From positions 1 to 17,717 of the forward strand of contig JAWXTK010000027.1 of NCBI GenBank assembly GCA_044433645.1: 17,717 nt of DNA. Reading direction: 5' to 3'. Positions 2,777 through 17,717 of the stretch are shown in pieces. The notes under the pieces are model-generated. The model saw nothing but the letters and a program-made list of their open reading frames with translations, searched no databases and was not told the origin of the DNA. How positions within the stretch are numbered: the stretch's first letter is position 1; each line of letters opens with the position of its first letter. Both the position numbers and the translations under genes were made by a program. This DNA comes from Rikenellaceae bacterium (GTDB lineage: Bacteria > Bacteroidota > Bacteroidia > Bacteroidales > Rikenellaceae).

Positions 2777-2782
2777 ATATAA

Positions 2783-5095
2783 ATGAGAAAAGGAATAATA
2801 TATATATTTGCTTTACTTTTGGGCGTTTTACTCTCGTGTACAACAGAGGAAGTAGTGTATAGACAGCTTAATATTTACCCTGAACTTGCTAGTTTTGGTG
2901 GTATAGTGCGTGAGAGGATGTATTACAGTGGTGATGATTCATGTCCCTACGTAGCAGTGCCTTACTTAAACGACTCAGAGCAAATAATCGAAGTAGAAAT
3001 CAATAATAGTTATCCCTCCTCATCCTCTATTATGGTATCAAACAGTGCGCAAACCCTAGAAAAGGGTGAGGGTGAGTTGAAAGTTCCAATTTATGGTAGC
3101 CTAGATGATGCCAATGCTAGTTTTAGCCTTGATTTTGATATTATTGCCTATGGTAGTTATTCTTGGAATGTTTGCTTAGATGATATTGAGGTTTATGCTA
3201 AGGATTATCTTTTGCCCGATATTGAGCTTGAGATTATCTCTCAGCCTAGTATAGTTAGAGGAGTGAGTCTTAAACAAGCGCAAATAGAGCTAAGCTATAA
3301 TAATGGATTTGCTAGAGAAGGTGATTTTAGTTTTGAGATTCAAGATGCCGTGGGTTTGAGCATAGCTTCGCTCTCTGAGGTAGAACTAGTAAATAATGCT
3401 CAAAAGACAACTCTAAGTTTTGATATTGAGGGCGAATATAACGGTGATTTATCACTACTTAACTTTACGGTGAAATTTACTACCACCCAAACTCAAGTGT
3501 TTAGTGTGGTGGGCGAGTTAGAGGTTAAAGATGCGAGTGAGTTAGTGTTTGAAACTCTTACTAGTTCTGTGGATTTAGAGCAAGCGCGAAGCCTTGATAA
3601 CGAGTATCTTATCTTGTCGTATAAGGGTGGAGACAATAGATTAATTACTCTGGGCGCAGAGTTTGAATCGGGCTTTGGACTTAGTGCAATAAGCTCTAAG
3701 GAATATGCTCTTGAGAGCGATGAGGGTAAGATTTATTTGTATTTTAACTCAGAATCTCCTTTGCTTTCTGGGCAGATGAAAGTTGATATTCAGTATTCGG
3801 GTGAGGCTGTGGAGTCTAATCAGAGTGAAACTTTTGAAATAGAAGTGGCAGAGAAAACGCCAGATATTTTGATAAGCGAGATAAGATTATTAGGCTCTAT
3901 AATTGAAGGTGGTGTGCAGGATGATGACTTTATTTTAGAGGTAGATTACTCTAATGGTACACAGGGCAAAGAACTATTTGTTGAGGCTCTTTCGCAGTGC
4001 TTTGATTATGATAGCGAAGCCTTGGCTGAGGTGTCTAGTTTTCTTATTAAGGAGCAGAGCGCTACGGCTAGGTTTAATTTAGGCTCTGATGTGATTTTAA
4101 ATAGCAAAAATATCAGCTCGTCAACAGGCCTAAGTGAGCAAAATATTGTTTTAGTTAATTTAAATTATAATAAATCCTCGTTAGATGAGCAGCAAAGCGA
4201 GCAAATAAATTTCTCGGGTCTGATTTTTAATAAACTTCCTTATTACACTATCACGCTAGCTAACGGCCAGCTGTGGTTAGATAGAAATTTGGGGGCAAGT
4301 AGCATAGAGCCTAGTGATGAATACGCCTCAAGCGTTGGTTGTGAGTATAATTGGAAGGCTTATGGAGATTTTTATCAGCGAGGTCGCTCAACGGGACTTA
4401 AACTAAAAGTTGATAGTAATAATCCTTATGCAGCTAACTCGCTCCAGAGCTATACAAAACCTTATTTAGACCCTACAAGTGGCGATTGGGAAGATGGTTA
4501 TTGGACTAATCCTTCAACTGATGATTTGGCTGTGCCTACATATTCATCGGGCTATGAAACCACGCTAGATAATATGTGGAATAGCGAGAATGGAGGTGAG
4601 AATAATCCCTGCCCCGAAGGTTATAGATTACCCACTCTCTCTCAGGTGCAGAGTATGTTTATTACCGTGAGTGGTGTGGATTATTCACAATCCACGGTTA
4701 GCTCGTTAAATAAATTAATTACTAAGATGAACTTTGCTTATTCTGGCTATATTCATCATATAGGACTTGTTAATTCAACGCTGTATTACAGCTCGAATGC
4801 AGACGCATTTTATAATTCTCATAATTACAGAGGCTCGCAAGGTGGTGTAGGTATGATAGTTAACGGTAATAATGATGTTATTTTGCCTTATTGGAAAGGC
4901 GAGGGTGGTTTCACTCTGGGTGATTTAAGTAACCCTGAGAGCGTGGGTGAAATTGCAATTTTAACTTGTGATTACTTAACTACCACAGCTAGCACTTATG
5001 TGCAAACAGTAGTTGGTAAAGCAAGTGGCGAGATTGCAAACCAAACTATGAGATATGAGAGAGCAATGCCTGTTAGATGTTTATTAAATAAATAA
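2783..5095 (+). CDS. Large surface lipoprotein with C-terminal Fibrobacter succinogenes major paralogous (FISUMP, TIGR02145-like) domain
   Basis: Signal + lipobox (LLSCTTEEVV; acidic residues after the Cys resemble the Bacteroidota surface lipoprotein export signal). C-terminal ~280 aa carries the FISUMP hallmarks: ITLANGQLWLDRNLGAS...YGDFYQRGR...NPCPEGYRLPTLSQV. N-terminal 480 aa look like beta-rich repeated domains of unknown family. Confidence 0.7.
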   Translation: MRKGIIYIFALLLGVLLSCTTEEVVYRQLNIYPELASFGGIVRERMYYSGDDSCPYVAVPYLNDSEQIIEVEINNSYPSSSSIMVSNSAQTLEKGEGELKVPIYGSLDDANASFSLDFDIIAYGSYSWNVCLDDIEVYAKDYLLPDIELEIISQPSIVRGVSLKQAQIELSYNNGFAREGDFSFEIQDAVGLSIASLSEVELVNNAQKTTLSFDIEGEYNGDLSLLNFTVKFTTTQTQVFSVVGELEVKDASELVFETLTSSVDLEQARSLDNEYLILSYKGGDNRLITLGAEFESGFGLSAISSKEYALESDEGKIYLYFNSESPLLSGQMKVDIQYSGEAVESNQSETFEIEVAEKTPDILISEIRLLGSIIEGGVQDDDFILEVDYSNGTQGKELFVEALSQCFDYDSEALAEVSSFLIKEQSATARFNLGSDVILNSKNISSSTGLSEQNIVLVNLNYNKSSLDEQQSEQINFSGLIFNKLPYYTITLANGQLWLDRNLGASSIEPSDEYASSVGCEYNWKAYGDFYQRGRSTGLKLKVDSNNPYAANSLQSYTKPYLDPTSGDWEDGYWTNPSTDDLAVPTYSSGYETTLDNMWNSENGGENNPCPEGYRLPTLSQVQSMFITVSGVDYSQSTVSSLNKLITKMNFAYSGYIHHIGLVNSTLYYSSNADAFYNSHNYRGSQGGVGMIVNGNNDVILPYWKGEGGFTLGDLSNPESVGEIAILTCDYLTTTASTYVQTVVGKASGEIANQTMRYERAMPVRCLLNK

Positions 5096-5101
5096 TGAGC
5101 T

Positions 5102-6388
5102 ATGAGATATTTGTTAATTATATTTTCTTTGTTGCTGCTCTCGTGTGAGAGCGAAGAAATAGTTGAGTTTGTAACCAACGGCGAAAAGTATGAGGACACT
5201 GAGCTAGATTTGAGCTATGCCCCTGAGTGTTACCCAGTCTTTTCGTGGGATAAAGTGCCTTTGAATGGTCACTTTAGCAAGGATACTGATAACTTTACAG
5301 ACGAGGAGGCTGAGTTTATCGCCAACACTTACAGCTTTGTGACTTTAGAAAAAAATCAAGGTAACCCAGATGTGGGGGCTGATATTGAGACTCCTAAGGA
5401 TGCTGCCTTGATTAAACAATATAATTCTGATTGTAAGGTGCTATTGTATTGGAACACTCGTAATGATTATGGTGATATGTGGTCTACGGGTTCAAATTTA
5501 ATTTATAACCCTACGACCAAGGATACAGCCTCGGCTAAGAATTTTGAGTGGATACTCTATGACGGAGTTACCTATTATAATGATGGAACGGATTATCGCC
5601 ATAGGTTTGATCCTAGAAACGAAGAAATGAGCCTGTGGTGGACTTCTGTTGCTGTGGATATGATAGCTGAGCATAGCTCGCTTGACGGAATTTTTGCAGA
5701 CGGTGTTATGAGCTATGTTGAAAGTAGCTCTACTGTTATGACGCGCCTAGATACTTATTATGGCGCAGGGCAGGGTGATGCTTACCGTTATGAAGGGCTA
5801 GATATGTTAGGTAATGTTACCTCTAGTTATAATAATCAAAATCTTGTAATTGCTAATTGTATTCGTGCTCAGCGTAGTGCCTTGCCTGATAGCGAGGGTA
5901 GAGACGGATTCTTAGGTCTTGATTATTGTCACGGAGGTATGTTAGAGCATTTTGCTTGCCCAGGTACAGCCTCTTATACTAAAGATTATATACTCCAAGA
6001 TATAGAGTATATAGAAACAGCCTCATCCATAGGCAAAATCACTGTGGTGAAGGGCTGGCCTAGATATAAATGGACAGATGATATATTAGACACAATGAGC
6101 GATGCTGAAAAAGAGGCTATGCTTAGAGAAGATATAGTTTTCCCATTGGCTTGCTACTTACTAGGGGCAGGTGAGTACAGTTACTTTGCTTACTCGTGGG
6201 GCTATCGTATGGAGCACGGTTGGATGTATGACTATGAAGAATTTAATAAACCCCTGGGTGCTCCTCAGGGTGCTAAGGTAAAGGTTAAACCTGGCGATAG
6301 TAGTAGTTATGAGTACACTCGCGAGTTTGAACATGCTCACGTTTGGGTTGATATTGAGAGCTTCACAGCCGAAATAACTTGGTTGTAA
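5102..6388 (+). CDS. Putative TIM-barrel glycoside-hydrolase-like lipoprotein (GH114/GHL-type), paralog A
   Basis: Signal + lipobox with strong acidic export-signal-like tail (LLSCESEEIVEF). Shares blocks with the next ORF: FSWDKV, LEKNQG, DG(I/V)F(A/I)D, EDIVFPLAC(Y/F)L(L/V)GAGE..YF.YSWGY, NKPLG, YTREFE.A.VWVD.ES. The DG-hydrophobic-F-x-D block is typical of the GH114/GHL clan. Exact family not determinable by eye. Confidence 0.55.
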   Translation: MRYLLIIFSLLLLSCESEEIVEFVTNGEKYEDTELDLSYAPECYPVFSWDKVPLNGHFSKDTDNFTDEEAEFIANTYSFVTLEKNQGNPDVGADIETPKDAALIKQYNSDCKVLLYWNTRNDYGDMWSTGSNLIYNPTTKDTASAKNFEWILYDGVTYYNDGTDYRHRFDPRNEEMSLWWTSVAVDMIAEHSSLDGIFADGVMSYVESSSTVMTRLDTYYGAGQGDAYRYEGLDMLGNVTSSYNNQNLVIANCIRAQRSALPDSEGRDGFLGLDYCHGGMLEHFACPGTASYTKDYILQDIEYIETASSIGKITVVKGWPRYKWTDDILDTMSDAEKEAMLREDIVFPLACYLLGAGEYSYFAYSWGYRMEHGWMYDYEEFNKPLGAPQGAKVKVKPGDSSSYEYTREFEHAHVWVDIESFTAEITWL

Positions 6389-6411
6389 ATACAAAACTTT
6401 AAAATGTTTTT

Positions 6412-7578
6412 ATGAGATTAAATTTAATTGCTTTTTTCACACTCATTTTATGTAGTGTAAATCTTTTTGCTCAAAAGCCAACAGAGGCCTATCCCGATTT
6501 TTCGTGGGATAAAGTGTCGGTTTGCATACACCTGGGCAAGAGTACAGATGATTTTACGGCTAAGGAAACGAAATTTCTTTCGAGATTTCCCATAGTGTGC
6601 TTAGAAAAAAATCAAGGCCTTAATAAACACGGAGCCATGGAACTTGGCACTATTGCAGCTGGTAAAGCTATTAAAGAGTATAACCCAGATACAAAAATCT
6701 TATTTTACTTTAATAGCTGTATAGATTTTGGCGAAATGTATATGACAGGTTATATGCTCAGCGATGATGCTAACCCAGATTGGGCTGTTAAAAGCCTTAA
6801 TGGCGAGTATGTGTTAATTAGAAACAGAACCAACAGACGTATGTATGATTATTCAAACGATAATATGCGCGAATGGTGGGTTTCGACAGCGAGAAAATGG
6901 ACTAGAAATAAATATATAGACGGTGTGTTTATAGATGCAATTCCAAAGTATGCAGCATCAACACCAACGCGTAAAAAACAATGGGGCGAGGAGAAATTTA
7001 ATGCTATTTACGCAGGTCTTCACTCAGCTTTAAGTGAGCTAAAAACCGAGCTTAATGGCGAAAAACTTATGATAGGTAATTTTTTAAGAGGAAACGAGAA
7101 AATTATGCCTGATATGGGAACTCACTTCCATGACTACACCGACGGAGGTATGATAGAACATTTGGGTATTTTAACCTGTTCGCCAAAAGAGCATATCGCA
7201 AAGGATATAGAGCTAATTCAGGATGCAGCCAAAAGAAAGAAAATTGTAGTTGTAAAAGCATGGCCTACTTTTAACTTTATGGAGATGGGAGATATGAAAA
7301 ACAAATCTCAGAAGGTAAAAGAGACAAAAGCAAGGGAGGATATAGTCTTTCCGTTGGCGTGTTTTTTAGTTGGAGCAGGTGAGTGGGCTTATTTCTGCTA
7401 TTCGTGGGGCTACGAACACACCCAAGGGGGTTTGGTTGATTACGCTGAGTATAATAAACCTTTGGGTAAACCCTTAGGCGATGCCGTTAAAACAGACTGG
7501 GTTTACACGCGCGAATTTGAGAGAGCAAGCGTATGGGTAGACTTAGAAAGTAGACAAGCAAAAATTAATTGGAGATAA
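6412..7578 (+). CDS. Putative TIM-barrel glycoside-hydrolase-like protein, paralog B (SPI-type signal, not a lipoprotein)
   Basis: About 35-40% identical to 5102..6388 over conserved blocks (AYPDFSWDKV, CLEKNQG, IDGVFIDA, EDIVFPLACFLVGAGEWAYFCYSWGY, YNKPLGKPLG, YTREFERASVWVDLES). N-terminus MRLNLIAFFTLILCSVNLFAQK looks like a type I signal peptide. Confidence 0.55.
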   Translation: MRLNLIAFFTLILCSVNLFAQKPTEAYPDFSWDKVSVCIHLGKSTDDFTAKETKFLSRFPIVCLEKNQGLNKHGAMELGTIAAGKAIKEYNPDTKILFYFNSCIDFGEMYMTGYMLSDDANPDWAVKSLNGEYVLIRNRTNRRMYDYSNDNMREWWVSTARKWTRNKYIDGVFIDAIPKYAASTPTRKKQWGEEKFNAIYAGLHSALSELKTELNGEKLMIGNFLRGNEKIMPDMGTHFHDYTDGGMIEHLGILTCSPKEHIAKDIELIQDAAKRKKIVVVKAWPTFNFMEMGDMKNKSQKVKETKAREDIVFPLACFLVGAGEWAYFCYSWGYEHTQGGLVDYAEYNKPLGKPLGDAVKTDWVYTREFERASVWVDLESRQAKINWR

Positions 7579-7608
7579 TTTTTTTTATTAGTGTATGTAT
7601 TAAGGAGC

Positions 7609-7645
7609 AAAGGCGAGGAAATTAAATTTTCCTCGCCTTTGTGAT
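7609..7645 (+). terminator. Rho-independent terminator closing the 263..7578 gene block
   Basis: Perfect 10-bp stem (ggcgaggaaa / tttcctcgcc) at 7612..7637 with a short AT loop, followed by tttgtgattt. Confidence 0.55.
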
Positions 7646-7672
7646 TTATCTAAGAAATAAATATTATATTTG
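7638..7672 (+). promoter_or_regulatory. Candidate Bacteroidetes sigma-A-type promoter (-33 TTTG / -7 TAtaTTTG) for the 7734 gene
   Basis: TTTG at 7638..7641 and TATATTTG at 7665..7672, about 60 nt upstream of the ATG at 7734. Spacing (23 nt) is slightly longer than the usual 19-21, so confidence is low. Confidence 0.3.
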
Positions 7673-7733
7673 TAACTTACTAGTAAATAAACCCTTTGAC
7701 CTCCTATTGGTAGACAATACTTGTATTTGATTT

Positions 7734-8168
7734 ATGAAAAAATATATAGTTTATTTAATATTATCGGCACTGATTTTTGCTGGGTGTCAAGAAGATTTAG
7801 AGTTTGAGGCAATAGTTGTGCCTGAGGCCTTGCTTTTAGTGTCACTTCCTGGGGGAGATAACTCATCACGTGTGAGCTTTGCTGATAGTAATGGTGAAAT
7901 ATCGCTTACGTGGAAAGGTGGCGATACTTTTGGGGTGTATGATAGCGCTGGTGAAAGAGTTTCAGATTATAAATATACGGCAAATAGTTCGGGTGGTGCA
8001 GCTTTGTTTGAAGCTAGTGATAACACTAATTTGTTGGTTAATGGTAGCAGTTACACAGCCGTTTACCCTGCCGTAGATAATGCTACAAACCTTGATGAGC
8101 ACAGAGAAATATTAGTAGGCAGAGTCTTAGAGCAAACACAAGGGGCTATAATTCTATGGACCATTTAA
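7734..8168 (+). CDS. N-terminal fragment (signal peptide + lipobox + first domain) of a surface lipoprotein; 5' part of a frameshifted gene
   Basis: MKKYIVYLILSALIFAGCQEDLEFE is a classic lipoprotein signal with an acidic surface-export-like tail. The ORF ends at TAA 8166..8168 only 13 nt after the next ORF's ATG, and the frame-2 ORF is open from 8099. Confidence 0.5.
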   Translation: MKKYIVYLILSALIFAGCQEDLEFEAIVVPEALLLVSLPGGDNSSRVSFADSNGEISLTWKGGDTFGVYDSAGERVSDYKYTANSSGGAALFEASDNTNLLVNGSSYTAVYPAVDNATNLDEHREILVGRVLEQTQGAIILWTI

Positions 8169-9061
8169 ACGATGCGCTATGTATGGAGGCTAATTTTACT
8201 TATTCTTCTAGCTCTAGCACAAAAGTTAGTTTTGCACATAGTTTTGCCACTATGCGCATGACTTTTTCTTTGGAGGATAATCAGATTCCTGCAAAATTAG
8301 AATTTACAGATGGTGATTACGCTACATACACTATTAATATGAGTGATGTTAGCTCGTCGGATAGTTATACTGTGTATTATGTGATTTTCCCACACGAGGG
8401 TGGTGAGAGAAATTTATCGTATGGCATCACAACTATACACGACGAATTATATTATTATAAGTTAGTTTGCTCTACAACTTACTATGAGGGTCAAAATTAT
8501 ATAGCTACTATACCAGGACTTACTTTGTTTTATATCCCAGATGGATATACCCCTATTTACTTTGACGTGGACTTATACAATATTAGAGATGATCTTTCGG
8601 GGCAATATATTTTGATGAATGATATTACTTTGTCTGGTTATGATAATTGGACACCGATAGGCACTAGTTCTAATTATTTCTCTGGTGTTTTCTCTGGTGG
8701 AGGTTTTACTATCTCGGGCCTTAATATTAATTCTGAGGATGATTACCAAGGACTATTTGGCTACGTGAGTGGCGCAACTATTAAAAATGTTATTGTCAAA
8801 GAGCCTTCTATTCAAGTAGGTCAATACTCAGGCGCAGTTGTCGGATATTTTTCTGATTACTCTGTTACATCTTGTTATTATTTAGAGATAACAGGCACTT
8901 CTTATACTAATGAGTATGGCACAGCATCTAGTGAAGCGACTATGAAAGCTTCTAGTTTTGTAACTACACTTAACTCGGCTGCTGGCTCAACTTACTTTAA
9001 ACAAGATACAAACAATTATAACGACGGCTATCCTATACTTGTTGGGTTAGATTACAATTAA
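8156..9061 (+). CDS. C-terminal portion of the same surface protein: GLUG-like (beta-helix) repeat region; most likely fused to 7734..8168 in the intact gene
   Basis: No signal peptide of its own, although the content is clearly extracytoplasmic. GLUG-like repeats: NYFSGVFSGGGFTISGLNINS, YQGLFGYVSGATIKNVIVKE, QYSGAVVGYFSD. A +1 G in the G4 tract at 8142..8145 would join both ORFs into one ~445-aa lipoprotein. Confidence 0.5.
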   Translation: MDHLNDALCMEANFTYSSSSSTKVSFAHSFATMRMTFSLEDNQIPAKLEFTDGDYATYTINMSDVSSSDSYTVYYVIFPHEGGERNLSYGITTIHDELYYYKLVCSTTYYEGQNYIATIPGLTLFYIPDGYTPIYFDVDLYNIRDDLSGQYILMNDITLSGYDNWTPIGTSSNYFSGVFSGGGFTISGLNINSEDDYQGLFGYVSGATIKNVIVKEPSIQVGQYSGAVVGYFSDYSVTSCYYLEITGTSYTNEYGTASSEATMKASSFVTTLNSAAGSTYFKQDTNNYNDGYPILVGLDYN

Positions 9062-9106
9062 TTTGATTATTAGGATGAATAAATTATAAAAATAAACTAA
9101 AATATT

Positions 9107-10291
9107 ATGGCATTATTTGATAAATCGACTCAGGCCTATGACGGTCAACAGTCAAAAGGAACTAACAAGGGAATGGTGGGCTCTACTATATTCTGGCGCC
9201 CTGAATCTAATGAGGCAATGGTTTATAAATATGCTCACGATGATATTCGTAACGGAGCTATTGTTGTAACTCACCAATCTCAAAGAGCGTATTTGTTTCT
9301 TAACGGAGCACTTGCTCACAGTATTCCTCCCTCAGGGGGCCAATACAAACTTGAAACTGCAAACATCCCCTTGTTTGCTAAGTGGCTTAATGCTGCTACC
9401 GGAGGTACAACTCACAGCCCTGCTGAGATTTGGTTTGTAAATGTAGAAACTGAGCGAGCTGCTCTGTGGGGTTTGGGCGATTTGCCAATTATGGACCACT
9501 CTATGGGTGTAGAATTTATTATCGGAGCTAGAGGTGGTTACAATATTAAAATCGTAGACGGAGCATTGCTATTGATGAAATTAGTGGGTGCACTTGATGA
9601 TTTCTCAACTAATGAATTTCTTAGTTATTTCAAACAAAAAATTCGCTCTATCGTAGCTCAGGCTATTTCAGATGTGGTTGAGACTGAGAAATTGTCTATG
9701 CTTTCACTTCAAAGAAACAGAAAAACGCTTGAGATAAAGGTTGAGGAATTTATTAATCGCGAGCTAGAGGCCTATGGTGTTTGTATTAAAAACTTTGCAG
9801 TTGAGAATTTTAATATCCCAGAAGAATATCGCGAGGTTCTTAAAGAGCAAACTAAAGGCCTAGCAGAAAGAAAACGCCTTGATCAACTTGGTGTGGCTTA
9901 TGCTCAGGAGCGCCACTTTGATATTATGGACAATGCTGCCAAAAACGAAGGTGGCACAGTAGGCTCACTAATGGGAGCAGGCATGGGACTAACCATGGGC
10001 GCTGGCGTAGGTCAGGCTATGGGTAACAGCCTTAACCAAGGCTTTAGTCAGGCATCTTCGCCCACTGCACCTCCTCCGATTCCTCAGGCTAAGGAATACT
10101 ATCTAGCTATTAACGGACAGCAAGCAGGGCCTATGGGCGTGGCAGGGATTCAAGAAATGATTAATCAAGCTCAGGCAAATTCTCAAACACTTTATTGGTG
10201 TCAAGGAATGGGTGACTGGGAGCCAATCTCTAGTTCAACAGAATTAACTGGAGCCCTTAAATTCTTACCACCAGCTATCCCTACACTTTAA
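9107..10291 (+). CDS. SPFH/Band-7 family protein (Band_7_1, PF13421-like) with C-terminal DUF4339 (GYF-like) domain
   Basis: N-terminus MALFDK...IFWRPESNEAMVYKYAHDDIRNGAIVVTHQSQRAYLFLNGALA matches the conserved start of Band_7_1 proteins. A central SPFH-like region is followed by a Gly/Met-rich segment and a Pro-rich linker (PTAPPPIPQA). C-terminal EYYLAINGQQAGPMGVAGIQEMINQAQANSQTLYWCQGMGDWEPIS is the DUF4339 signature. Confidence 0.75.
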   Translation: MALFDKSTQAYDGQQSKGTNKGMVGSTIFWRPESNEAMVYKYAHDDIRNGAIVVTHQSQRAYLFLNGALAHSIPPSGGQYKLETANIPLFAKWLNAATGGTTHSPAEIWFVNVETERAALWGLGDLPIMDHSMGVEFIIGARGGYNIKIVDGALLLMKLVGALDDFSTNEFLSYFKQKIRSIVAQAISDVVETEKLSMLSLQRNRKTLEIKVEEFINRELEAYGVCIKNFAVENFNIPEEYREVLKEQTKGLAERKRLDQLGVAYAQERHFDIMDNAAKNEGGTVGSLMGAGMGLTMGAGVGQAMGNSLNQGFSQASSPTAPPPIPQAKEYYLAINGQQAGPMGVAGIQEMINQAQANSQTLYWCQGMGDWEPISSSTELTGALKFLPPAIPTL

Positions 10292-10318
10292 TATTCATTA
10301 CTTAAAAAAACTAAAGAT

Positions 10319-11008
10319 ATGAAACTAAAACAATTAAATGTAATAATAACAGTAATCTGTGTAATTGCAACTTTAGGTATAGAATACTTGCTTAGACCAG
10401 AGCAAATCGGTAGTTTGTATAAATTCAATATGGCAGCAATTATCTTGTTAGAAGTGCTGTTTATCAATGCTTTATACCTAACAGCTAAAAAAGAAAACTA
10501 CTCTCCTCAGAGCATAACCGTGGCTGTGCGTGTGCTTAAGTATGGTGTGTTTGCAGCTCTGTGGCTTGTGATTTATGCTGTGGCTCTTCGCAAAAATGTT
10601 GATATTAAGTGGTATTATGTTGTGCATATTGCCCTTCTTGCATGGTTTGCTATATCAGCCTTTGTGCTTAATAGCGCAGGCGCCAAACAAATAGAGGTGA
10701 ACGAGGCTCAGCAGGCTAGAGTAGAGGAAAGAGCAAAAACCACTGCAAAAGTATTTGTTTCTAAAAGCGATATTGAAAGAAACATTACAAAATCATCTCT
10801 GTCGGTTGAGGCTAAACGCGATATAAATTTGCAGGTTAATACTATATACGACAAACTTCGTTTTTCTCCAGCTAACTTAGGTGAGGACGATCTTGCGCAA
10901 AGCTACCTTGAACAAATCAATACTCTATCCTCAGATAACGACTCAAGCGAAGAGGCTATAAAAGAAAAAATCGCCGACCTTATTAGTTATATTAATTCTA
11001 GGAACTAA
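10319..11008 (+). CDS. Integral membrane protein (4 predicted TM helices) with a C-terminal soluble helical domain; unknown function
   Basis: Four hydrophobic ~20-aa segments in residues 8-120, then a charged, coiled-coil-like tail (EVNEAQQARVEERAKTTAK...). Only 27 nt downstream of the SPFH gene on the same strand. Confidence 0.55.
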   Translation: MKLKQLNVIITVICVIATLGIEYLLRPEQIGSLYKFNMAAIILLEVLFINALYLTAKKENYSPQSITVAVRVLKYGVFAALWLVIYAVALRKNVDIKWYYVVHIALLAWFAISAFVLNSAGAKQIEVNEAQQARVEERAKTTAKVFVSKSDIERNITKSSLSVEAKRDINLQVNTIYDKLRFSPANLGEDDLAQSYLEQINTLSSDNDSSEEAIKEKIADLISYINSRN

Positions 11009-11051
11009 TATAACGCAACTCAATTATAATTTAAAAAAAAACTTAAATATT

Positions 11052-11462
11052 ATGTCAAAACAATCAAATTGCCCTAAGTGTGGCGCGAAAATGAATTTTG
11101 ATGAGGCGCAATACATTATGGTTTGCCCTTATTGTGAAGAGGAAATACGCTTAGAGAGACCTGCCACTCCTCCACCTGCTCAGCCTGCGCAAGCAACTCT
11201 TAGCGATGAACAGTTAAGAAGAATATCAGCGCAGATGAGACAAAATCAAGCTCCACCAAGACCTCGTAAAAGCAAATCTACGGCTATTATTCTGTGCTTT
11301 TTCTTAGGTATGTTGGGCATACATCAATTTTATCTTGGCAACACTTGGCGAGGTATAGGCTACCTTGTCTTAACGTGTTCGGTAGTTGGTGCTTGGCTAG
11401 CAGCTATAATTTTATTTATTGATTTTATCGTTCTTTGCTGCACAAGCGAAGATTCATTCTAA
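11052..11462 (+). CDS. Zinc-ribbon + TM2-domain membrane protein
   Basis: N-terminal CPKCG-x17-CPYC zinc ribbon, then a Pro-rich linker (PATPPPAQPAQA), then a C-terminal TM2 domain (PF05154 pattern): KSKSTAIILCFFLGMLGIHQFYLGNTWRGIGYLVLTCSVVGAWLAAIILFIDFIVL. Confidence 0.7.
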   Translation: MSKQSNCPKCGAKMNFDEAQYIMVCPYCEEEIRLERPATPPPAQPAQATLSDEQLRRISAQMRQNQAPPRPRKSKSTAIILCFFLGMLGIHQFYLGNTWRGIGYLVLTCSVVGAWLAAIILFIDFIVLCCTSEDSF

Positions 11463-11489
11463 ATTTAACCTTTTTTATAAATAAAAAAA

Positions 11490-11525
11490 CAGCAAATGAC
11501 ATTCTAGTCATTTGCTGTTTTTGTT
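11490..11525 (+). terminator. Rho-independent terminator for the 9107..11462 transcription unit
   Basis: Perfect 11-bp stem (cagcaaatgac / gtcatttgctg), 6-nt loop attcta, followed by tttttgttttg. Preceded by an A7 run, so it could also act on the opposite strand. Confidence 0.6.
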
Positions 11526-11540
11526 TTGTAGGGGTTGTAT

Positions 11541-11580
11541 ATATCAAAAAAAAAGCTCGCCCTAATTAGGACGAGCAAAT
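11541..11580 (-). terminator. Rho-independent terminator for rplU-rpmA (minus strand)
   Basis: Hairpin agctcgccct-aatt-aggacgagc (one mismatch) at about 11550..11577. On the minus strand it is followed by a T9 run (complement of the A9 at 11541..11549), directly downstream of the rpmA stop. Confidence 0.5.
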
Positions 11581-11603
11581 TTTGAACATCTTAGTGTTTT
11601 AAC

Positions 11604-11864
11604 CTACTCAGCGATTGGAGTGATTGAAACGTAAGATTTTCCAGAAGTCTTTTTGCAGAAAGAAACTGTACCGTTTGTAAGTGCAAAAAGTGTGTGGTCT
11701 TTACCCATACCCACGTTTTCACCTGGGTTGTGAACCGTACCTCTTTGACGAACGATAATGTTTCCTGCTTTTGCGAATTGTCCACCGAACAATTTCACGC
11801 CTAGTCGTTTACTTTCTGATTCACGACCATTCCTAGAACTACCAGCTCCTTTTTTGTGTGCCAT
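11604..11864 (-). CDS. rpmA: 50S ribosomal protein L27
   Basis: [29 protein letters not shown]...[23 protein letters not shown] is the universally conserved L27 sequence. 86 aa is the typical size. Confidence 0.95.
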
Positions 11865-11883
11865 TTCTCTTTAAGTTTTAACG

Positions 11884-12198
11884 TTAAGCAATAATAATAT
11901 CATCAATAAGGATTTGAGTTAGGAATTGTCTATGACCATTTTTTACTCTGTATCCTTTTCTACGTTTTTTCTTGAACACTATGACTTTGTCGTCTTTTAA
12001 GTGTTTAAGAATCGTAGCATTGATTGAGGCCCCTTCAATAACAGGTGTGCCTACATTTACCTGACCGTCGTTGTCTGTTAGCAGGATTTTGTCGAAACTC
12101 AAAGAAGAACCTTCCTCTCCTTTAAGACGGTGAACATAGAGTTTGCGACCTTTTTCAACTTTAAATTGTTGACCTGCAATTTCTGCGATTACGTACAT
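11884..12198 (-). CDS. rplU: 50S ribosomal protein L21
   Basis: MYVIAEIAGQQFKVEKG..L.V..L......V.FDKILL is the conserved L21 N-terminus. 104 aa. Lies 19 nt upstream of rpmA in the canonical rplU-rpmA arrangement. Confidence 0.95.
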   Translation of the reverse strand: MYVIAEIAGQQFKVEKGRKLYVHRLKGEEGSSLSFDKILLTDNDGQVNVGTPVIEGASINATILKHLKDDKVIVFKKKRRKGYRVKNGHRQFLTQILIDDIIIA

Positions 12199-12228
12199 CT
12201 GTATGCTTATTTACAAAAAATTAGTTCG

Positions 12229-12260
12229 CAAATATAATGATAATACTTGATATCGCCAAA
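12229..12260 (-). promoter_or_regulatory. Bacteroidetes-type promoter (-33 TTTG, -7 TATATTTG) for rplU-rpmA
   Basis: Minus-strand reading: TTTG (complement of 12257..12260), a 20-nt spacer, then TATATTTG (complement of 12229..12236), about 30 nt upstream of the rplU ATG. Matches the TTTG / TAnnTTTG consensus with canonical spacing. Confidence 0.5.
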
Positions 12261-12351
12261 ACTTATGAATCTTTTTTTTAAAAAAAATCTTGATTTTATG
12301 ATATAAGGAGCGATTTTTGATTTAACAAACTATCAAAAAATAATCAAACAG

Positions 12352-12717
12352 ATGAAAATACTGATAGTTAGCAATGATTTTATAGAGGGTGGCTTTCTTA
12401 GAGAGGCTCTCTACTTTGAGGGCTTGGATGTGTGTGGGGTGTGCCCTTTAGAGCAAGTTGAGCATTACTGCCATGAGCATGAGGTGGGCGTAATAATTAG
12501 TTTTTGTCATCACAGCCTGCTAAACGGGGGTTGGTGCAGTGAATTTTTTGAGCGTTTACAGCTAAAGGCTAGGCCTAAAATATTTTTGCTGAGCTCAATT
12601 TCTGATGAAAATACGGTGATAAGCATGTATAAGGGCAAGGTTAATCAATATTATATGCTACCCATGGATTTAAAGCGCATGGTTAAGAATTTGTCAAATG
12701 AAATTTCTAAAATTTAA
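12352..12717 (+). CDS. Pseudo-receiver (degenerate CheY-like REC) domain protein, Cys/His-rich
   Basis: MKILIVSNDFIEGGFLREAL...VGVIISFCHH...IFLLSSISDE...YYMLPMDLKRM aligns to a CheY-like receiver, but D12 is N, the phospho-acceptor D57 is F (IISF in place of VISD) and K109 is L. There are 5 Cys + 6 His in residues 28-62 (CGVC, HYCHEHE, FCHH, WC). Confidence 0.6.
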   Translation: MKILIVSNDFIEGGFLREALYFEGLDVCGVCPLEQVEHYCHEHEVGVIISFCHHSLLNGGWCSEFFERLQLKARPKIFLLSSISDENTVISMYKGKVNQYYMLPMDLKRMVKNLSNEISKI

Positions 12718-12723
12718 GCTGTT

Positions 12724-13677
12724 ATGGAGTTATTGCTGGGTGTGTTAATAGGCGTGTTTTTGATTATTTTTGTGTGCTATTCTATAAGATTTTTGTGCGT
12801 AAATAGCAATTTTAAGTGGATAAAACGCAGGCGAGAGTTAGCAATTAGCCGTCTGTTGAAATCATTTTATCAGTGGATTTATCAGGGTTATATTCCTCGT
12901 GGGGAGTTCTCTCACATGCTGCATCACAGGTCGCGCTCTTTGGCTATAAAAATCCTAGCGCAACTTCGCGAGGTAACTCATGGGCACATACCTATGCGAC
13001 TGGAAAGATTTGTGGCATGGCGTAAACTTGATAAATATTTGTTGCGTTTAGCTAATCGCAGGCGAGGATTAAAACGTGCGCTTATAGTTAAAACTTTGTT
13101 TCTTTTGCCGCTGCCCAGGTGGAGCGAGAAAAAGGTAATAAGGTTTGAGGATGATAAAAATGCTTATGTGCGTTTGTTTGCGCTTATGTCTCATCTGGAT
13201 TATGATTTTTCTAGAAGTATAGATATTCTGCACGAGTTCAAGGGCGAATATAGAACCTTGGATTATTGTATGTTGGCTAAGTATTTTCATCGTAGGAGCC
13301 TAACCAAAGATTTTCATCTTAGGCTTTTACGCCATGAGGATGAGAGGTTGCAGTTTTTTGCTCTATATATAATTAGAATGAGGAATTTATCTTCCTCAGG
13401 TGGGGATATCCTTAAATATTTGCCAACGGAGAATGATGATTTGGTTTTTGAAATGCTAAAGACTTTGGTTGTAGTGCATTATGATATGAATCACGAGAGA
13501 GTGGTGGCTCTAATGAGAGAGCAAAAAAGCGAAAAGCGCAAGTATTTATATCGCCTAGCAGCAAGCGAGGGCTATTCTCTGGGTGCACTGGAGAGGGTTT
13601 TGATGGTCGAAAAGCACGCTTTTATGGTTGATTATGTGGTGAGTTTGATTCAGGGTGGTAAGTATAAATTGGTTTAA
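12724..13677 (+). CDS. Membrane-anchored (single N-terminal TM) basic alpha-helical-repeat protein; unknown function
   Basis: N-terminal hydrophobic helix LLLGVLIGVFLIIFVCYSI. The remainder is rich in R/K/H with recurring amphipathic helix-like segments (HEAT/ARM-like by eye). Start is 7 nt after the pseudo-receiver stop. Confidence 0.5.
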   Translation: MELLLGVLIGVFLIIFVCYSIRFLCVNSNFKWIKRRRELAISRLLKSFYQWIYQGYIPRGEFSHMLHHRSRSLAIKILAQLREVTHGHIPMRLERFVAWRKLDKYLLRLANRRRGLKRALIVKTLFLLPLPRWSEKKVIRFEDDKNAYVRLFALMSHLDYDFSRSIDILHEFKGEYRTLDYCMLAKYFHRRSLTKDFHLRLLRHEDERLQFFALYIIRMRNLSSSGGDILKYLPTENDDLVFEMLKTLVVVHYDMNHERVVALMREQKSEKRKYLYRLAASEGYSLGALERVLMVEKHAFMVDYVVSLIQGGKYKLV

Positions 13678-13691
13678 ATAATTTATTTGCT

Positions 13692-14819
13692 ATGTTATTA
13701 ATTTGCATTACTGTTGGTTTGCTTGTTTTAGTTTGTTTAAGGATTTTTCTGCTTGCCTGTATTGGGGTGCGCTCTATGGGTGATTCTAGGTTAAATGATG
13801 CTTTGATGGAGTGTCGAAATGCTCGCCTCTCTGATGCTTATAATGAGATTGCTATATCTATTATAGTGGCAGATTTGGAGAGGGAAAGCGATTTGATATC
13901 TTTGCTTAGTCTGGATTTAAATCGTTATGAGGTGGTGCTTTTGTTAGATTTTAATGATAGTGCTCTGGTAGGAAATATCCTTGCGCGCTATAATATGCTA
14001 AAGGTTGATAAAGTACCAACTAGCGAACTTTCGTGTATGTCTGTGCGTGGGGTTTATCGTTCTAGAGAGAGTGTTTACTCGCGTTTGGTTATAGTGGATA
14101 TGAATAAAGGGGGTAATGCTCAAAGATTTAGTTGTGGGGCAAATATTGCTAGATATGAATATGTCATGGCCTTAGAAAAAGGTTGTTTGCTCACCCCAGG
14201 GGCAGTTTGCAGTGTGGTGCGTACTTTGTTAGAGCAAAATACGCAGATAAAATATTGCGCCGTAGGGGGCTTTCGTTTGGGTGAGTTGCCACGCAATATT
14301 TTTAAGATTGTGGATCTAAGTGTAAAGATGCTAATTGTGGGGGCTGGTTTTGCAAAACTTTCGCTTTGGGGCGAGAATGTGAGTGTGGTTTTTGATAGAG
14401 AATATTTGGTGCAGGCAGGTGGCTATGGTATAGACAAACATTTTGATTATGAATTAGTTAAGCGCATAGAAAGAATGAACGAGCGAACCAAGGACGATGC
14501 CAAAGTAATGCTTATGCCCAAGGTGATGCTAAGAGACAGAAATGCTAGTGGATTAGACATTAAGAAGTGTCTGTTTTCATCGGGTTTTGTGTTTGGGATG
14601 CTGCTTGTTTTGATGATGTTTTGCTTGCTTAGCGAGTATCTGAGTTTGGTGGTTTTGACTGTTGTTTTTGTATATATTCTTAGTGTTTGTGTGGCAGCTA
14701 TGAGCGTGTATGCTTGCTCTGGGATGCTTAGGCCAAAGAACTCTCTGGGTGTGATAGTGGCTGTTATATTTTATCCTTTTTTCTTAATTTTTAGATTAAT
14801 TCGCTTGATTAGGTATTAA
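13692..14819 (+). CDS. GT2-fold (family 2 glycosyltransferase-like) membrane protein with N- and C-terminal TM segments and a variant DxD motif
   Basis: N-terminal TM. ISIIVADLE...YEVVLLLDFNDSAL corresponds to the GT2 vsviiP...eiivvDDgStD block. VDMNKGGNAQRFSCGANIARYEYVMALEKGCLLTPGAV corresponds to NlGkaaArNaGlkaAkGeyilflDaDd..ep.al, with DaD replaced by EKG. VFDREYLVQAGGYGIDKHFDYELVKRIER corresponds to fRrealeevGGfde...EDlelslRl. C-terminal ~90 aa form 3-4 TM helices. Confidence 0.5.
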   Translation: MLLICITVGLLVLVCLRIFLLACIGVRSMGDSRLNDALMECRNARLSDAYNEIAISIIVADLERESDLISLLSLDLNRYEVVLLLDFNDSALVGNILARYNMLKVDKVPTSELSCMSVRGVYRSRESVYSRLVIVDMNKGGNAQRFSCGANIARYEYVMALEKGCLLTPGAVCSVVRTLLEQNTQIKYCAVGGFRLGELPRNIFKIVDLSVKMLIVGAGFAKLSLWGENVSVVFDREYLVQAGGYGIDKHFDYELVKRIERMNERTKDDAKVMLMPKVMLRDRNASGLDIKKCLFSSGFVFGMLLVLMMFCLLSEYLSLVVLTVVFVYILSVCVAAMSVYACSGMLRPKNSLGVIVAVIFYPFFLIFRLIRLIRY

Positions 14820-14866
14820 AAACCAATAAATTTTTATATCTTTATACAAAATTTTTTAGTTAAACA

Positions 14867-15172
14867 ATGTATAAAGTTAATACCTCCTTTGTTGTCGAGG
14901 GTTGTGAGAACAATCGTTGGCTCAATATTATAAACGAAAATTATATACCTTTTCTTAAAGAAAACGGATTTAACCAGGTTTGTCTCTCGCGCGTATTATC
15001 AGCTGAGAACGAGTCTAATTTCACCTATTCTCTACTAGTTGATATAGACAATATTGCAGACTACGAAAAACTTACAGGTGTTATCTTTGATGAATATACA
15101 GCCGTGGCCGAACCCTTGTTTGGTGCACGCGTTGTTTGGTTTACTACTGTAATGAAGGTGCTAAATGAATAA
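14867..15172 (+). CDS. DUF4286-family small protein
   Basis: MYKVNTSFVVEGCENNRWLNIINENYIPFLKENGF...FTYSLL...ADYEKL..VIFDEYTAVAEPLFGARVVWFTTVMKVL fits the ~100-aa Bacteroidota DUF4286 pattern (MiiyNvTv.v...eWl.wm.e.HIP.v..tG.F ... F.T.le.l). Stop overlaps the next gene's start (ATGAATAA). Confidence 0.45.
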   Translation: MYKVNTSFVVEGCENNRWLNIINENYIPFLKENGFNQVCLSRVLSAENESNFTYSLLVDIDNIADYEKLTGVIFDEYTAVAEPLFGARVVWFTTVMKVLNE

Positions 15173-16715
15173 GAAGTTAACATATATTATCCTTAGTTTA
15201 CTTTGTGTGTGCGCTACAAATAATCTTGGCGCAAAAACCACAGCTGTGAAATTCAAAAATAACGAGAAGTGGTGGGGCTTTTATGTCAATGACTCGCCCT
15301 CGCAACCTTTTATGCAGCCTTTTAGCGAAACGACTAATCAGTATAAAGAGGGTGGTGGGTTTACTAAAGCCGTGATGCTGTCTTCTGAGGGACGTTATAT
15401 GTGGTGCGCTGATGAGGCTCAGGTGCGTTTTACGGGTGATTCCCTGGTGGTGAAATCTGCTAGCGAAGTGAAAATTAATAAAGGTGGGCGTAATCTTCGT
15501 GAAGCCTTCTTGGTGTGTTGTCACAAAAATTTTCCTCCTTCAAATAAGCTCCCTTCGAGCGAACTTATAACCTCTATTGTATATGAAACATCCTCGGAGC
15601 TAGGTTTTGAGCAAGACCAACAGTCGCTTCTTGCTTATGCCAAGCGTTTGAAAGAAGAGGGTTACCCTACCGGTGTTATAGTTTTGGGAAATGGCTGGAG
15701 AAACCTTAGTGGTTCGTGCGATTTTAATAAACAGCTTTATCCCGATGCTAAGGCCATGGTGGAGACGCTGCATAAAATGGGATTTAAACTTATGCTAACT
15801 TACACCCCTCTTATTACTCCGGTGGGTGTGGATTACATGAATCTTAGAGATAAAAATCTGTTGCTCAAAAACAAGCGTGGCACAGTGCAAATTGTGCGCA
15901 ATGATGCTGGTTATCAGGCCTGTGTGAATATAGCTTTGTCTGAGGCATCATCTATGTTAAAATCTGAGGTTGATTACCTAAGAGATATGTATAACATAGA
16001 CGGTTTTAGATATGATGCTAGTGCCGTGTTACCTTTTTTGAACAACACGGGGGCTAAGGATGCTTTTATGCGCGAGTGGCTGAGCTTTGGTAAGAGCGAT
16101 AGAGTTAAAGAGTATATGCCTGGGCTTATGGATAAGTTTATGGTACACGTTAATTGCTTTGAGGATAATACGCCTATTAGCTATAAAACGCTTAATGCTA
16201 GGATAAATAATTTGATTTCCTCGGCTTTGTGTGGTTATGGCTACACCCATAGTTTGATATCTAAGAGCGTGGCTGAAGCTGCGTATGAGGATGAACTTTT
16301 AATGGCTTATTACTTGCAACTAGCGGCCTTTATGCCTGTGTGTTCGGTGGATTTTGCGCCTTGGAGAGTCGAGGATGAAAAATTAAGAGAGAGAATTAAA
16401 CAAATGTACACAATAAGAAGTTCAATAAGTGAGTTTTTAAATAAAGCCTTGGACGGACTTGGTGCTAGCTCTGAGCCTATAATTAGGAATATGGAGTATC
16501 AATTCCCACGCCTTGGATACTCTGATTGTATTAATCAATTTATGTTTATTGATAAATACATGGTTGTTTTGCCCGAGCAAAATTCCTCTAAAACTCTAGT
16601 GAGATTCCCTCGTGGAGTGTGGAAATCGGCTAAGGGTGAGATAATTAAAGGCCCTATTGTTAAGAGTATCAGTGCCGAAAAAGGCCAAATACTTTACTTT
16701 GAACTAACAAACTAG
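15165..16715 (+). CDS. Secreted glycoside hydrolase, GH31 / clan GH-D-like TIM barrel
   Basis: Signal peptide MNKKLTYIILSLLCVCATNNLGA. GVIVLGNGWRNLSGSCDFNKQLYPDAKAMVETLHKMGFKLMLTYTPLI resembles the GH31 and GH27/36 block (viDdgW....F.fd...FPdp..mv..Lh..G.k..l...P.i). IDGFRYDAS resembles the nucleophile block (vDGfW.DMnE / DYLK.D). The exact family is uncertain. Confidence 0.5.
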   Translation: MNKKLTYIILSLLCVCATNNLGAKTTAVKFKNNEKWWGFYVNDSPSQPFMQPFSETTNQYKEGGGFTKAVMLSSEGRYMWCADEAQVRFTGDSLVVKSASEVKINKGGRNLREAFLVCCHKNFPPSNKLPSSELITSIVYETSSELGFEQDQQSLLAYAKRLKEEGYPTGVIVLGNGWRNLSGSCDFNKQLYPDAKAMVETLHKMGFKLMLTYTPLITPVGVDYMNLRDKNLLLKNKRGTVQIVRNDAGYQACVNIALSEASSMLKSEVDYLRDMYNIDGFRYDASAVLPFLNNTGAKDAFMREWLSFGKSDRVKEYMPGLMDKFMVHVNCFEDNTPISYKTLNARINNLISSALCGYGYTHSLISKSVAEAAYEDELLMAYYLQLAAFMPVCSVDFAPWRVEDEKLRERIKQMYTIRSSISEFLNKALDGLGASSEPIIRNMEYQFPRLGYSDCINQFMFIDKYMVVLPEQNSSKTLVRFPRGVWKSAKGEIIKGPIVKSISAEKGQILYFELTN

Positions 16716-16737
16716 AAACTAAAAAAAAACTATAAAT

Positions 16738-17592
16738 ATGCTAAGCAACGAACAAAGAATATTTCTGCTAACTAAAGCATACAATGCAGCACTTAGAGCA
16801 GGCAAGGTTATACTTGAATTATATGAGCAGGGCGCTGATAAAAACCAAGATATAGACCTTAAAACAGATTTGACACCTATTACTTTGGCAGATTTGCGAG
16901 CTCACGCAACTATCAAAGAATATCTTTCGCAAACACGCATACCTCTCTTGTCGGAAGAAGGGCGCGAGATGCAATATTTTGAGCGTTCACATTGGGACTT
17001 GTTTTGGATGGTTGACCCCCTGGATGGAACTAAGGAATTTTTGAAACGTAACGGAGAATTTACGGTGAGTATAGCTCTTATGGTGGATAATAAACCTCAG
17101 TTAGGGGTGATTTATGTGCCTTATTTAAGCAAAATTTACTTTAGCGACACCCAAGAAGGTTCGTTTGTTAAAGTTAATGCAGTGGCTGATGAGAATGCTG
17201 ATTTTAGCTATGCAGACATAGTTGAGGGTTGTGAGTCTTTGCCACTTAAAACTGAGTGTAACTCGCCTATAAAAGTAGGGGTGAGTCGCTCACATATTAA
17301 TGAGTTGACCTATAAATATATAGACTCACTTAGAGAAAAATATCCAGATTTGGAGACCGTGATTCAGGGTAGTTCTTATAAATTTTGTTTGCTAGCCGAG
17401 GGTGTAATAGACTATTATGTGCGTACAACAAATACCTATGAATGGGATACGGCAGCTGGCGAAGTTATACTGCAAATGACTGGTGGTGAAACACTTGAGT
17501 TAGATTCGCTGAAACCTATGGATTATAACAAAGAGAGTAGCTTGCAAAATCCTTTCTTTGTGTGCAAAAGCAAATTTTTTAAAGAAAAATAA
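16738..17592 (+). CDS. cysQ: Inositol-monophosphatase-family phosphatase, likely 3'(2'),5'-bisphosphate nucleotidase (CysQ-like)
   Basis: Diagnostic IMPase motif WMVDPLDGTKEFLKRNGEFTVSIALMVDNKPQLGVIYVP, with the E..E upstream (LLSEEGRE) and WDTAAG near the C-terminus. Size (284 aa) and overall pattern match CysQ. Confidence 0.7.
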   Translation: MLSNEQRIFLLTKAYNAALRAGKVILELYEQGADKNQDIDLKTDLTPITLADLRAHATIKEYLSQTRIPLLSEEGREMQYFERSHWDLFWMVDPLDGTKEFLKRNGEFTVSIALMVDNKPQLGVIYVPYLSKIYFSDTQEGSFVKVNAVADENADFSYADIVEGCESLPLKTECNSPIKVGVSRSHINELTYKYIDSLREKYPDLETVIQGSSYKFCLLAEGVIDYYVRTTNTYEWDTAAGEVILQMTGGETLELDSLKPMDYNKESSLQNPFFVCKSKFFKEK

Positions 17593-17717
17593 CTAATAAC
17601 TTAAGGGGACTTCTAAAAATTAAGTCTTTGTAATTCAGTAAATTATCACTATCTTTACATTGTAATTAAAGCAAATGCAGATATGATTTTTAAGAGTACA
17701 GGTAAGCGAGGATTGTT

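Follow-up and report, generated by a model that had tools for sequence, protein, structure and literature searches.

What becomes of a membrane synthase operon when the catalytic motifs of its parts are lost and its genes are nevertheless kept? The question is raised by three consecutive genes on contig JAWXTK010000027.1 of a Rikenellaceae bacterium (assembly GCA_044433645.1), of which positions 1 to 17,717 of the forward strand were analyzed; this whole 17,717-nt stretch is referred to as the window. The genes encode a 121-amino acid (aa) receiver-like protein (the pseudo-receiver; 12352-12717, + strand), a 317-aa basic membrane protein (MID, the middle protein; 12724-13677, +) and a 375-aa protein resembling family 2 glycosyltransferases (the pseudo-GT2; 13692-14819, +), with gaps of 6 and then 14 nt between them. 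An earlier note on this DNA, made from its sequence, had described these open reading frames (ORFs) and gaps, and exactly these ORFs are found; the database records for the three proteins are hypothetical proteins of a Rikenellaceae metagenome-assembled genome (MAG). The answer proposed here, to which we give a probability of about 0.65, is that the trio is an exapted, non-catalytic complex of the inner membrane, a scaffold or a ligand sensor, derived from a synthase module. The proteins are homologous to the parts of such a module, have lost its catalytic motifs, keep their place in the genome and are under selection. From this we would derive the rest: that the three form a complex, that it lies in the membrane with the topology and the regulatory ancestry set out below, and that its role is non-enzymatic.

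Single-sequence scans against Pfam, NCBIfam and PADLOC yield nothing above threshold for any of the three proteins. Since routine annotation stays below its thresholds, fold assignments made by eye needed profiles and structures for their confirmation. A defense-system reading of the trio was rejected, because a PADLOC match is absent.

A synthase-type glycosyltransferase without its motifs

On its own, the window GT-like protein matches no GT2 family of Pfam at E<=1, and its sole NCBIfam match is PgaC_IcaA (TIGR03937; E 0.021, 13.8 bits, cut-off 422). A profile built from three GT-like sequences matches canonical GT2 proteins of 472-483 aa (PF13632, PF13641, PF00535) at E 8e-34; hhalign aligns residues 21-365 with the canonical GT2 proteins at 99.8% probability (E 6e-30), and a three-sequence canonical hidden Markov model (HMM) finds the window protein at E 1.9e-18. 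A sequence-profile search of the PDB with the GT-like profile gave no match. The protein has a GT-A fold between an N-terminal transmembrane (TM) helix (aa 2-20, at 13695-13751, +; hydropathy peak 2.89; model helix 2-50) and three hydrophobic helices that form a TM bundle at the C terminus (aa 290-374, at 14559-14813, +) and appear as hydropathy peaks and as model helices 290-313, 317-342 and 351-374.

The fate of the catalytic motifs was followed in six Rikenellaceae GT-like proteins (those of the window and of loci L001, L004, L095, L096 and L098) and 93 canonical relatives. The nucleotide-binding Asp of the NDG(S) motif, which is present in 91 of the 93, is retained as Asp86 (codon at 13947-13949, +) and is invariant in the six. 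The DxD motif of metal and nucleotide-sugar binding, found in 92 of 93 canonical proteins, is found in none of the six: its columns read EKG in the window (E162-K163-G164, codons at 14175-14183, +) and DGW, GHW, DRW, GEG and DSR in the others, and the second Asp is always missing. The catalytic-base Asp of xED, present in about 92 of 93, is kept in the window (Asp252, codon at 14445-14447, +), L001 and L095; L004, L096 and L098 have Val, Leu or a different residue in its place. QRxRW is found in nearly all of the canonical proteins and in 0/6 of the Rikenellaceae proteins; in the alignment of the window protein, the segment comprising canonical QxxRW and the interface helix before the C-terminal bundle is a gap. 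Relative to the canonical proteins, the window protein lacks the Lys of GGK, a 14-aa loop and ~45 aa of the interface-helix and TM region, and much of the central GT-A region is additionally deleted in L096 and L098. The variation of the DxD-equivalent columns from lineage to lineage, together with the GT-A core deletions of two lineages, indicates a loss of catalysis. The earlier description of a synthase-type GT2 with EKG in place of DxD and without QxxRW therefore stands; of its two suggestions about function, that the protein is inactive or that it is non-canonical, inactivity is supported, and a conserved alternative chemistry is not, since the columns differ between lineages.

What is left is unevenly distributed. 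Residues 76-90 (YEV..D86), 121-135 (VYRSR...) and 226-255 (FDRE..GGY) are closest to the canonical consensus; residues 181-225 and 256-300, the acceptor and processivity half, are least similar to it. The segment at 121-135 is the end of an insert, ELxC..R.VYRSR, which we read as particular to this subfamily of GT2 and take to be absent from E. coli PgaC.

Might the GT-like protein still be active with non-canonical residues, as a metal-independent or single-carboxylate enzyme, so that the trio performs working glycan synthesis? Purifying selection on the gene (see below), the invariance of Asp86, the moderate conservation of the nucleotide-binding half of GT-A, the acidic residue that four of the six proteins have at the first DxD position and the xED Asp that three of them keep all speak for this. 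We nonetheless regard it as unlikely: Asp86 is the sole candidate catalytic residue conserved across the clade, QRxRW and the interface helices that follow it are deleted in all six proteins, L096 and L098 are without much of the central GT-A, and the near-invariance of the motifs in 93 canonical relatives of many phyla argues that the active family does not tolerate such changes. Another possibility is that the membrane part of the pseudo-GT2 serves as conduit or anchor for a polymerase encoded elsewhere, with MID and the pseudo-receiver as its cytoplasmic adaptors. The N- and C-terminal hydrophobic helices do persist in all six lineages, including those with a deleted GT-A core, in a synthase-type architecture like that of the channel-forming hyaluronan synthases (HAS) and BcsA; but few parts of the protein are less conserved in sequence than the TM region, which is also ~45 aa shorter than in the channel-forming relatives, and the conserved neighborhood contains neither a partner polymerase nor an outer-membrane exporter, which makes a conduit quite unlikely.

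The pseudo-receiver

The first protein of the trio has undergone a comparable loss. Pfam Response_reg (PF00072) scores the window sequence alone at 16.6 bits (cut-off 30.2), but a four-sequence profile (A6) matches response regulators of the PDB over its full length (E 3.7e-7 and better; 3.7e-7 for 5uic), so that a CheY-like (beta-alpha)5 fold is recognizable at the level of the profile. The phospho-acceptor column, which holds Asp in 46 of 47 receivers of canonical operons, is occupied by Phe51 in the window (codon at 12502-12504, +; placed by hmmalign, with which MAFFT agrees) and by F, M, S, L, Q or V, never Asp, in the six alignable Rikenellaceae sequences. The conserved Lys of beta5, likewise present in 46 of 47 canonical receivers, is Leu103 in the window (codon at 12658-12660, +; hmmalign) and Leu or Phe in all six; the acidic pair, whose position in the window is Ser7-Asn8, is lost in most Rikenellaceae lineages. 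The protein is predicted to be a receiver of CheY-like fold from which the phosphorylation chemistry has been removed, and the fold assignment made earlier by eye is borne out. Orthologues stand at the same position in L001, L004, L005, L095, L096 and L098.

The Cys/His-rich stretch to which the earlier note had drawn attention exists in the window protein (C28, C31, H38, C40, H41, H43, C52, H53, H54 and C62), but it is not conserved: C40 is the sole invariant residue of the stretch in the four closest relatives, and family-wide there is none. A metal site was accordingly rejected as an explanation of this lineage-specific cluster. The best-kept residues of the pseudo-receiver (E86, T88, S91, Q99, Y100, L103, P104 and R109) cluster instead in alpha4-beta5-alpha5, the usual interaction face of receivers.

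MID, a basic solenoid on a membrane anchor

MID has a single N-terminal TM peak (aa 3-21, at 12730-12786, +; hydropathy peak 2.88), which is the long first helix of its structural model, directly followed by the basic stretch KWIKRRRE. By the positive-inside rule this implies that the solenoid lies on the cytoplasmic side. The AlphaFold2 (AF2) model consists entirely of helices, 18 of them, with a predicted local distance difference test score (pLDDT) of 83, and its top fold matches, weak ones with E from 7.5e-3, are designed armadillo proteins, alphaRep and the HEAT lyase CpcE/F. A membrane-anchored HEAT/ARM-like solenoid, as proposed from the sequence alone, is in keeping with all of this. 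Sequence comparison comes to the same place less directly. The window protein matches no Pfam family at E<=1, hence no HEAT_2 or HEAT repeat, and its profile finds nothing in a sequence-profile search of the PDB; the HEAT partners of canonical GT2 proteins match PF13646 at E 1.8e-10 to 5e-15, and hhalign aligns MID with these HEAT_2 partners over 183 columns (76.6%, E 2e-5).

The extent of the family depends on the method of search. Word-indexed searching returned one to three relatives for each protein of the trio, a severe undercount in the case of the MID family: when its profile was run exhaustively with HMMER, 239 cluster representatives at 50% identity were recovered, mostly of 305-320 aa and aligned end to end, and long proteins of the partner type were also reached at E 1e-13 to 1e-17. 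The named members of the family all come from Alistipes, Gallalistipes aquisgranensis or a "Rikenellaceae bacterium", and without exception they are annotated as hypothetical. An HMM made from 115 short, Rikenellaceae-type MID sequences matches the gene directly upstream of a canonical GT2 gene in ~70 loci (E down to 1e-28), including loci of Bacillaceae, Paenibacillus, Actinomycetota and Caulobacterales, which places MID, as one of the short members, in the partner family dedicated to that GT2 subfamily. MID and the canonical HEAT partner are alike in gene position, directly upstream of the GT2 gene, and in layout, a TM anchor followed by the solenoid. They differ in charge: MID of the window has a pI of 9.96 and 21.8% R+K+H, the family has a median pI of 9.9 and a median net charge of +14, with 80% of its members above pI 9, and for the cytoplasmic parts of the canonical partners the median pI is 7.1. 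The shift of charge could reflect a new anionic ligand.

The parent module

The module from which the trio appears to derive was surveyed in 80 loci from species-representative genomes. In its full form it is a four-part operon that encodes a CheY-like receiver, a protein joining tetratricopeptide repeats (TPR) to an outer-membrane barrel of the YaiO family, a HEAT_2 membrane protein and a GT2. The order REC-(YaiO)-HEAT-GT2, in which REC is the receiver, recurs in ~35 Bacteroidota loci (Bacteroidales, Cytophagales, Flavobacteriales and Chitinophagales), most of which have the barrel, and the two-gene core, in which the gene of the HEAT partner immediately precedes that of a PgaC-like GT2, in ~70 loci of many phyla. 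Flavobacterium, Chitinophaga and Salegentibacter are among the carriers of the operon. The best curated match of the canonical GT2 is TIGR03937 PgaC_IcaA (E 1.6e-40; 139 bits, with an equivalog cut-off of 422); the barrel protein is YaiO-type (TIGR04390), with a weak match to the TPR region of PgaA (E 0.0046); and the HEAT partners range from ~240 to 780 aa. Often there is also a large receiver-containing protein upstream of the operon, probably a hybrid kinase. Example loci, among L008-L094, are L008 (5184-9419), L010 (3362-7623), L027 and L029. Two narrower scans recovered little of this: a metagenome scan with the three-sequence GT alignment found two canonical loci only, and a genome scan with a two-sequence GT alignment, whose patterns were too specific, found no match.

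Variants of the module were also seen. Two tandem GT2 paralogues follow the HEAT partner in L039 and L041-L044 (Chitinophaga, Chitinophagaceae and Flavipsychrobacter; one is labelled Beijerinckiaceae), with a ~3 kb gene downstream that has a weak YaiO-type match. The YaiO gene is in three fragments in L009 (3349-4683), and the canonical GT2 is in two adjacent ORFs in L038 (5831-7260), L046 (5962-7400) and L048 (5995-7423). Either frameshifts introduced in assembly or an independent decay of the system would account for these split genes in MAG loci.

The existence of a parent module bears on the claim that the window holds a composition of its own. A stand-alone, previously unseen system without relatives of the same make-up might be argued from the failure of any trio protein to reach a curated Pfam or NCBIfam threshold and from database names that are all "hypothetical protein", but the same composition recurs with intact motifs in the Bacteroidota loci, and its two-gene core more widely still. 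We give this reading next to no credence, and the uniqueness asserted in the earlier note falls with it. Its comparison of the trio to regulator/scaffold/synthase-like sets of the Pga and Bcs type fares better, in that a parent module has been found and PgaC_IcaA is the best match; and HMM searches, which could have sent the three proteins to unrelated, well-characterized families, assign them to related ones, the parent system being uncharacterized as far as was found.

Conservation and selection in the Rikenellaceae

The three genes are conserved together across Rikenellaceae lineages, and the trio adjoins rplU in seven or more of them, Gallalistipes aquisgranensis and Alistipes included, with flanking genes that vary; the stable position beside rplU-rpmA that had been supposed is real. 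The arrangement rplU-rpmA, trio, DUF4286-GH31-CysQ is common to L001/L007, L004 and L005. L095 is a Gallalistipes-type locus in which the trio adjoins rplU; L096/L097 are Alistipes-type, are without DUF4286 and GH31, and have a GT-like gene whose product is only 306 aa; in L098-L101 this product is 364 aa. CysQ directly follows the trio in L096. L098-L101, all of one Alistipes-type lineage, carry after trio-GH31-CysQ a histidine kinase and a response regulator of the OmpR type (in L100, for example, at 14692-16711); this pair is absent from the window. The trio genes overlap by 4 nt in L001, L004 and L096. The precomputed Pfam field is empty for every Rikenellaceae orthologue of the trio.

Are the three genes, then, merely functionless relics of an ancestral exopolysaccharide operon, kept in place by essential neighbors or because they hold the promoter of downstream genes? 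They do evolve much faster than their neighbors (between the window and L001 the trio proteins are 26-36% identical and the products of neighboring genes 44-66%), all functional motifs are lost, and sizes and internal deletions vary by lineage. But the reading frames are intact in every sampled lineage, at protein identities of 20-35%, the start/stop overlaps are retained, and MID is found in 239 distinct clusters, mostly at full length. Rates of nonsynonymous and synonymous substitution (dN and dS) were compared in a pair of 97%-identical Alistipes-type loci, L100 and L098 (dS ~0.06-0.11). Synonymous and nonsynonymous changes number 9:2 in the pseudo-receiver (dN/dS 0.065), 13:9 in MID (0.22) and 19:5 in the GT-like gene (0.088), which puts the trio within 0.07-0.22, much like its neighbors GH31, CysQ, a kinase and aspartokinase-homoserine dehydrogenase (0.04-0.16); for the GT-like gene of L001 and L007 the count is 7:1. 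Low dN/dS and intact frames argue against neutral decay, and the substitution pattern shows the trio to be under purifying selection comparable to that on housekeeping neighbors. Survival as relics is very unlikely.

A proposed path from synthase to pseudo-synthase

In the parent module, a kinase would phosphorylate the CheY-like receiver, the receiver would work through its cytoplasmic HEAT partner to turn on the membrane synthase, and the YaiO-type barrel would export the polymer. In the Rikenellaceae, the chemistry would have been removed from the receiver and the GT2, with no barrel gene nearby, and the three proteins would still assemble at the inner membrane without making a polymer. The parts that have been retained (the nucleotide-binding half of GT-A, the ELxC..R.VYRSR insert, FDRE/GGY, alpha4-beta5-alpha5 and the whole solenoid) look like binding surfaces, which suggests that interaction surfaces, and perhaps nucleotide binding, were kept while chemistry was lost. 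Candidate roles are the sensing of nucleotide sugars through the retained GT-A half and the scaffolding of an envelope process by the basic solenoid. A broader proposal joins two statements: that the parent, REC with HEAT and PgaC-like GT2 (and TPR/YaiO), is an undescribed, multi-phylum class of synthase-dependent system gated by phosphotransfer via a HEAT adaptor rather than by cyclic di-GMP (c-di-GMP), and that in the Rikenellaceae, human-gut Alistipes among them, exaptation has turned the whole module into a complex of three pseudo-components whose role is new and non-enzymatic. Taken jointly these are tentative, and we would place them somewhat short of even odds.

Several considerations weigh against an exapted, non-catalytic complex. 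The interaction of the three proteins is something that we infer, the regulatory logic of the parent is itself a proposal, and the inactivity of the GT2 is read from the loss of motifs, so that a non-canonical activity is possible; the window protein still has D86, E162 and D252. Its AF2 model has a mean pLDDT of only 75 and was made from an alignment in which 24 of 26 rows were canonical synthases, which may have pulled it toward their fold. The dN/dS values come from small counts in one Alistipes-type pair outside the lineage of the window. Finally, the window belongs to a MAG of which 17.7 kb are visible, and a barrel, a kinase or a second synthase could be encoded elsewhere.

The surrounding locus

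Upstream of the trio and divergent from it lie rplU (11884-12198) and rpmA (11604-11864); downstream, on the same strand as the trio, follow a DUF4286 gene, a GH31 gene and a CysQ-type gene. The last 8 nt of the DUF4286 ORF (15165-15172) are shared with the start of the GH31 ORF. The divergent intergenic region between rplU and the trio contains the motif GGAGCGATTTTTGA (12307-12320, +; consensus GGAGyGrTTTTTGA). The consensus lies about 32-55 nt before the start codon of the pseudo-receiver and is present in the window, L001, L004, L005 and L095, in which the proteins are only 20-38% identical; it is not evident upstream of the pseudo-receiver in L096 or L098/L100. It is probably a promoter element or an operator, and may combine an operator with a neighboring -7 'TTTG' promoter element of the Bacteroidota type.

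No convincing intrinsic terminator was found inside the trio, the weak matches of the scan (13168-13183 and 13575-13595) both lying within the MID ORF. Between the TM2/zinc-ribbon gene and rpmA (11485-11522) there is a perfect hairpin with a 16-bp stem and T-runs on both strands, which looks like a bidirectional intrinsic terminator. The window contains no structured RNA at Rfam gathering thresholds.

Genes farther upstream (263-11462) encode, among others, a sulfatase, a BspA-type leucine-rich repeat protein, two tandem GHL15 paralogues, an SPFH + GYF protein, a 229-aa membrane protein and a zinc-ribbon + TM2 protein; a 770-aa protein (2783-5095) is without a Pfam match, and two small proteins (7734-9061) are without a family match. 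There is neither a barrel nor a kinase among these genes, and neither the window nor the Rikenellaceae loci, which reach up to ~10 kb to each side, contain an ORF of the YaiO type. No c-di-GMP receptor domain (PilZ, PgaD-type, PelD or Alg44) was found among the window ORFs scanned against Pfam and NCBIfam.

Relation to known systems

The nearest described machines are PgaABCD and IcaAD. The parent GT2 and the window protein both point to TIGR03937 PgaC_IcaA, and both fall below its cut-off; the parent module and Pga both pair a processive inner-membrane GT2 with an outer-membrane protein of TPR and beta-barrel. The parent is without PgaD and the PgaB deacetylase, and its barrel is YaiO-type, not PgaA-type. 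PgaCD is regulated by c-di-GMP; in place of the c-di-GMP site of Pga, the accessory proteins of the parent are a HEAT membrane protein and a CheY-like receiver. The window version differs further from Pga in being without the catalytic motifs and the barrel. Class I HAS (Chlorella virus HAS, Xenopus HAS1) and BcsA are 10-13% identical to the window protein, which lacks their DxD and QxxRW, a PilZ domain and a BcsB-like partner and has a shortened TM/interface region. Set against synthase-dependent exopolysaccharide systems at large (Pga, Bcs, alginate and Pel), the trio is without competent polymerase motifs, and the slot of the regulator is filled by a receiver or pseudo-receiver.

Pseudo-receiver domains are familiar from the N-terminal domain of KaiA, the plant pseudo-response regulators (PRRs) and FrzS. 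The window protein is like them, as far as their descriptions go, in keeping the CheY-like fold with the acceptor Asp and/or the Lys replaced; it is set apart by standing alone at 121 aa and by having, at the same operon position in sister lineages, orthologues that are bona fide receivers. The yaiO-yaiP-yaiS locus of E. coli pairs a YaiO-family barrel with a GT2 gene, which suggests by analogy that the products of GT2 enzymes are exported through barrels of the YaiO type; we know of no HEAT partner or receiver at that locus, and the papers on yaiO that were found employ it mainly as an E. coli marker for the polymerase chain reaction. The term "pseudoglycosyltransferase", as used in the literature, denotes the unrelated enzymes VldE and ValL. 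A search that left many subscription papers outside its reach found neither the REC-HEAT-GT2-YaiO module nor the Rikenellaceae trio described in print, and a 2020 survey of synthase-dependent operons leaves the Bacteroidetes unmentioned.

With these relationships drawn, three "hypothetical proteins" found across the Rikenellaceae (in Alistipes, Gallalistipes and many gut MAGs) become a defined evolutionary object: a synthase module in which chemistry has been lost and selection kept. The retention of a whole operon as pseudo-components is uncommon, and it makes the trio a natural experiment on the non-catalytic roles of synthase complexes. To our knowledge, c-di-GMP control is considered rare in the Bacteroidota; a candidate route by which this phylum produces and regulates biofilm or exopolysaccharide is the parent module.

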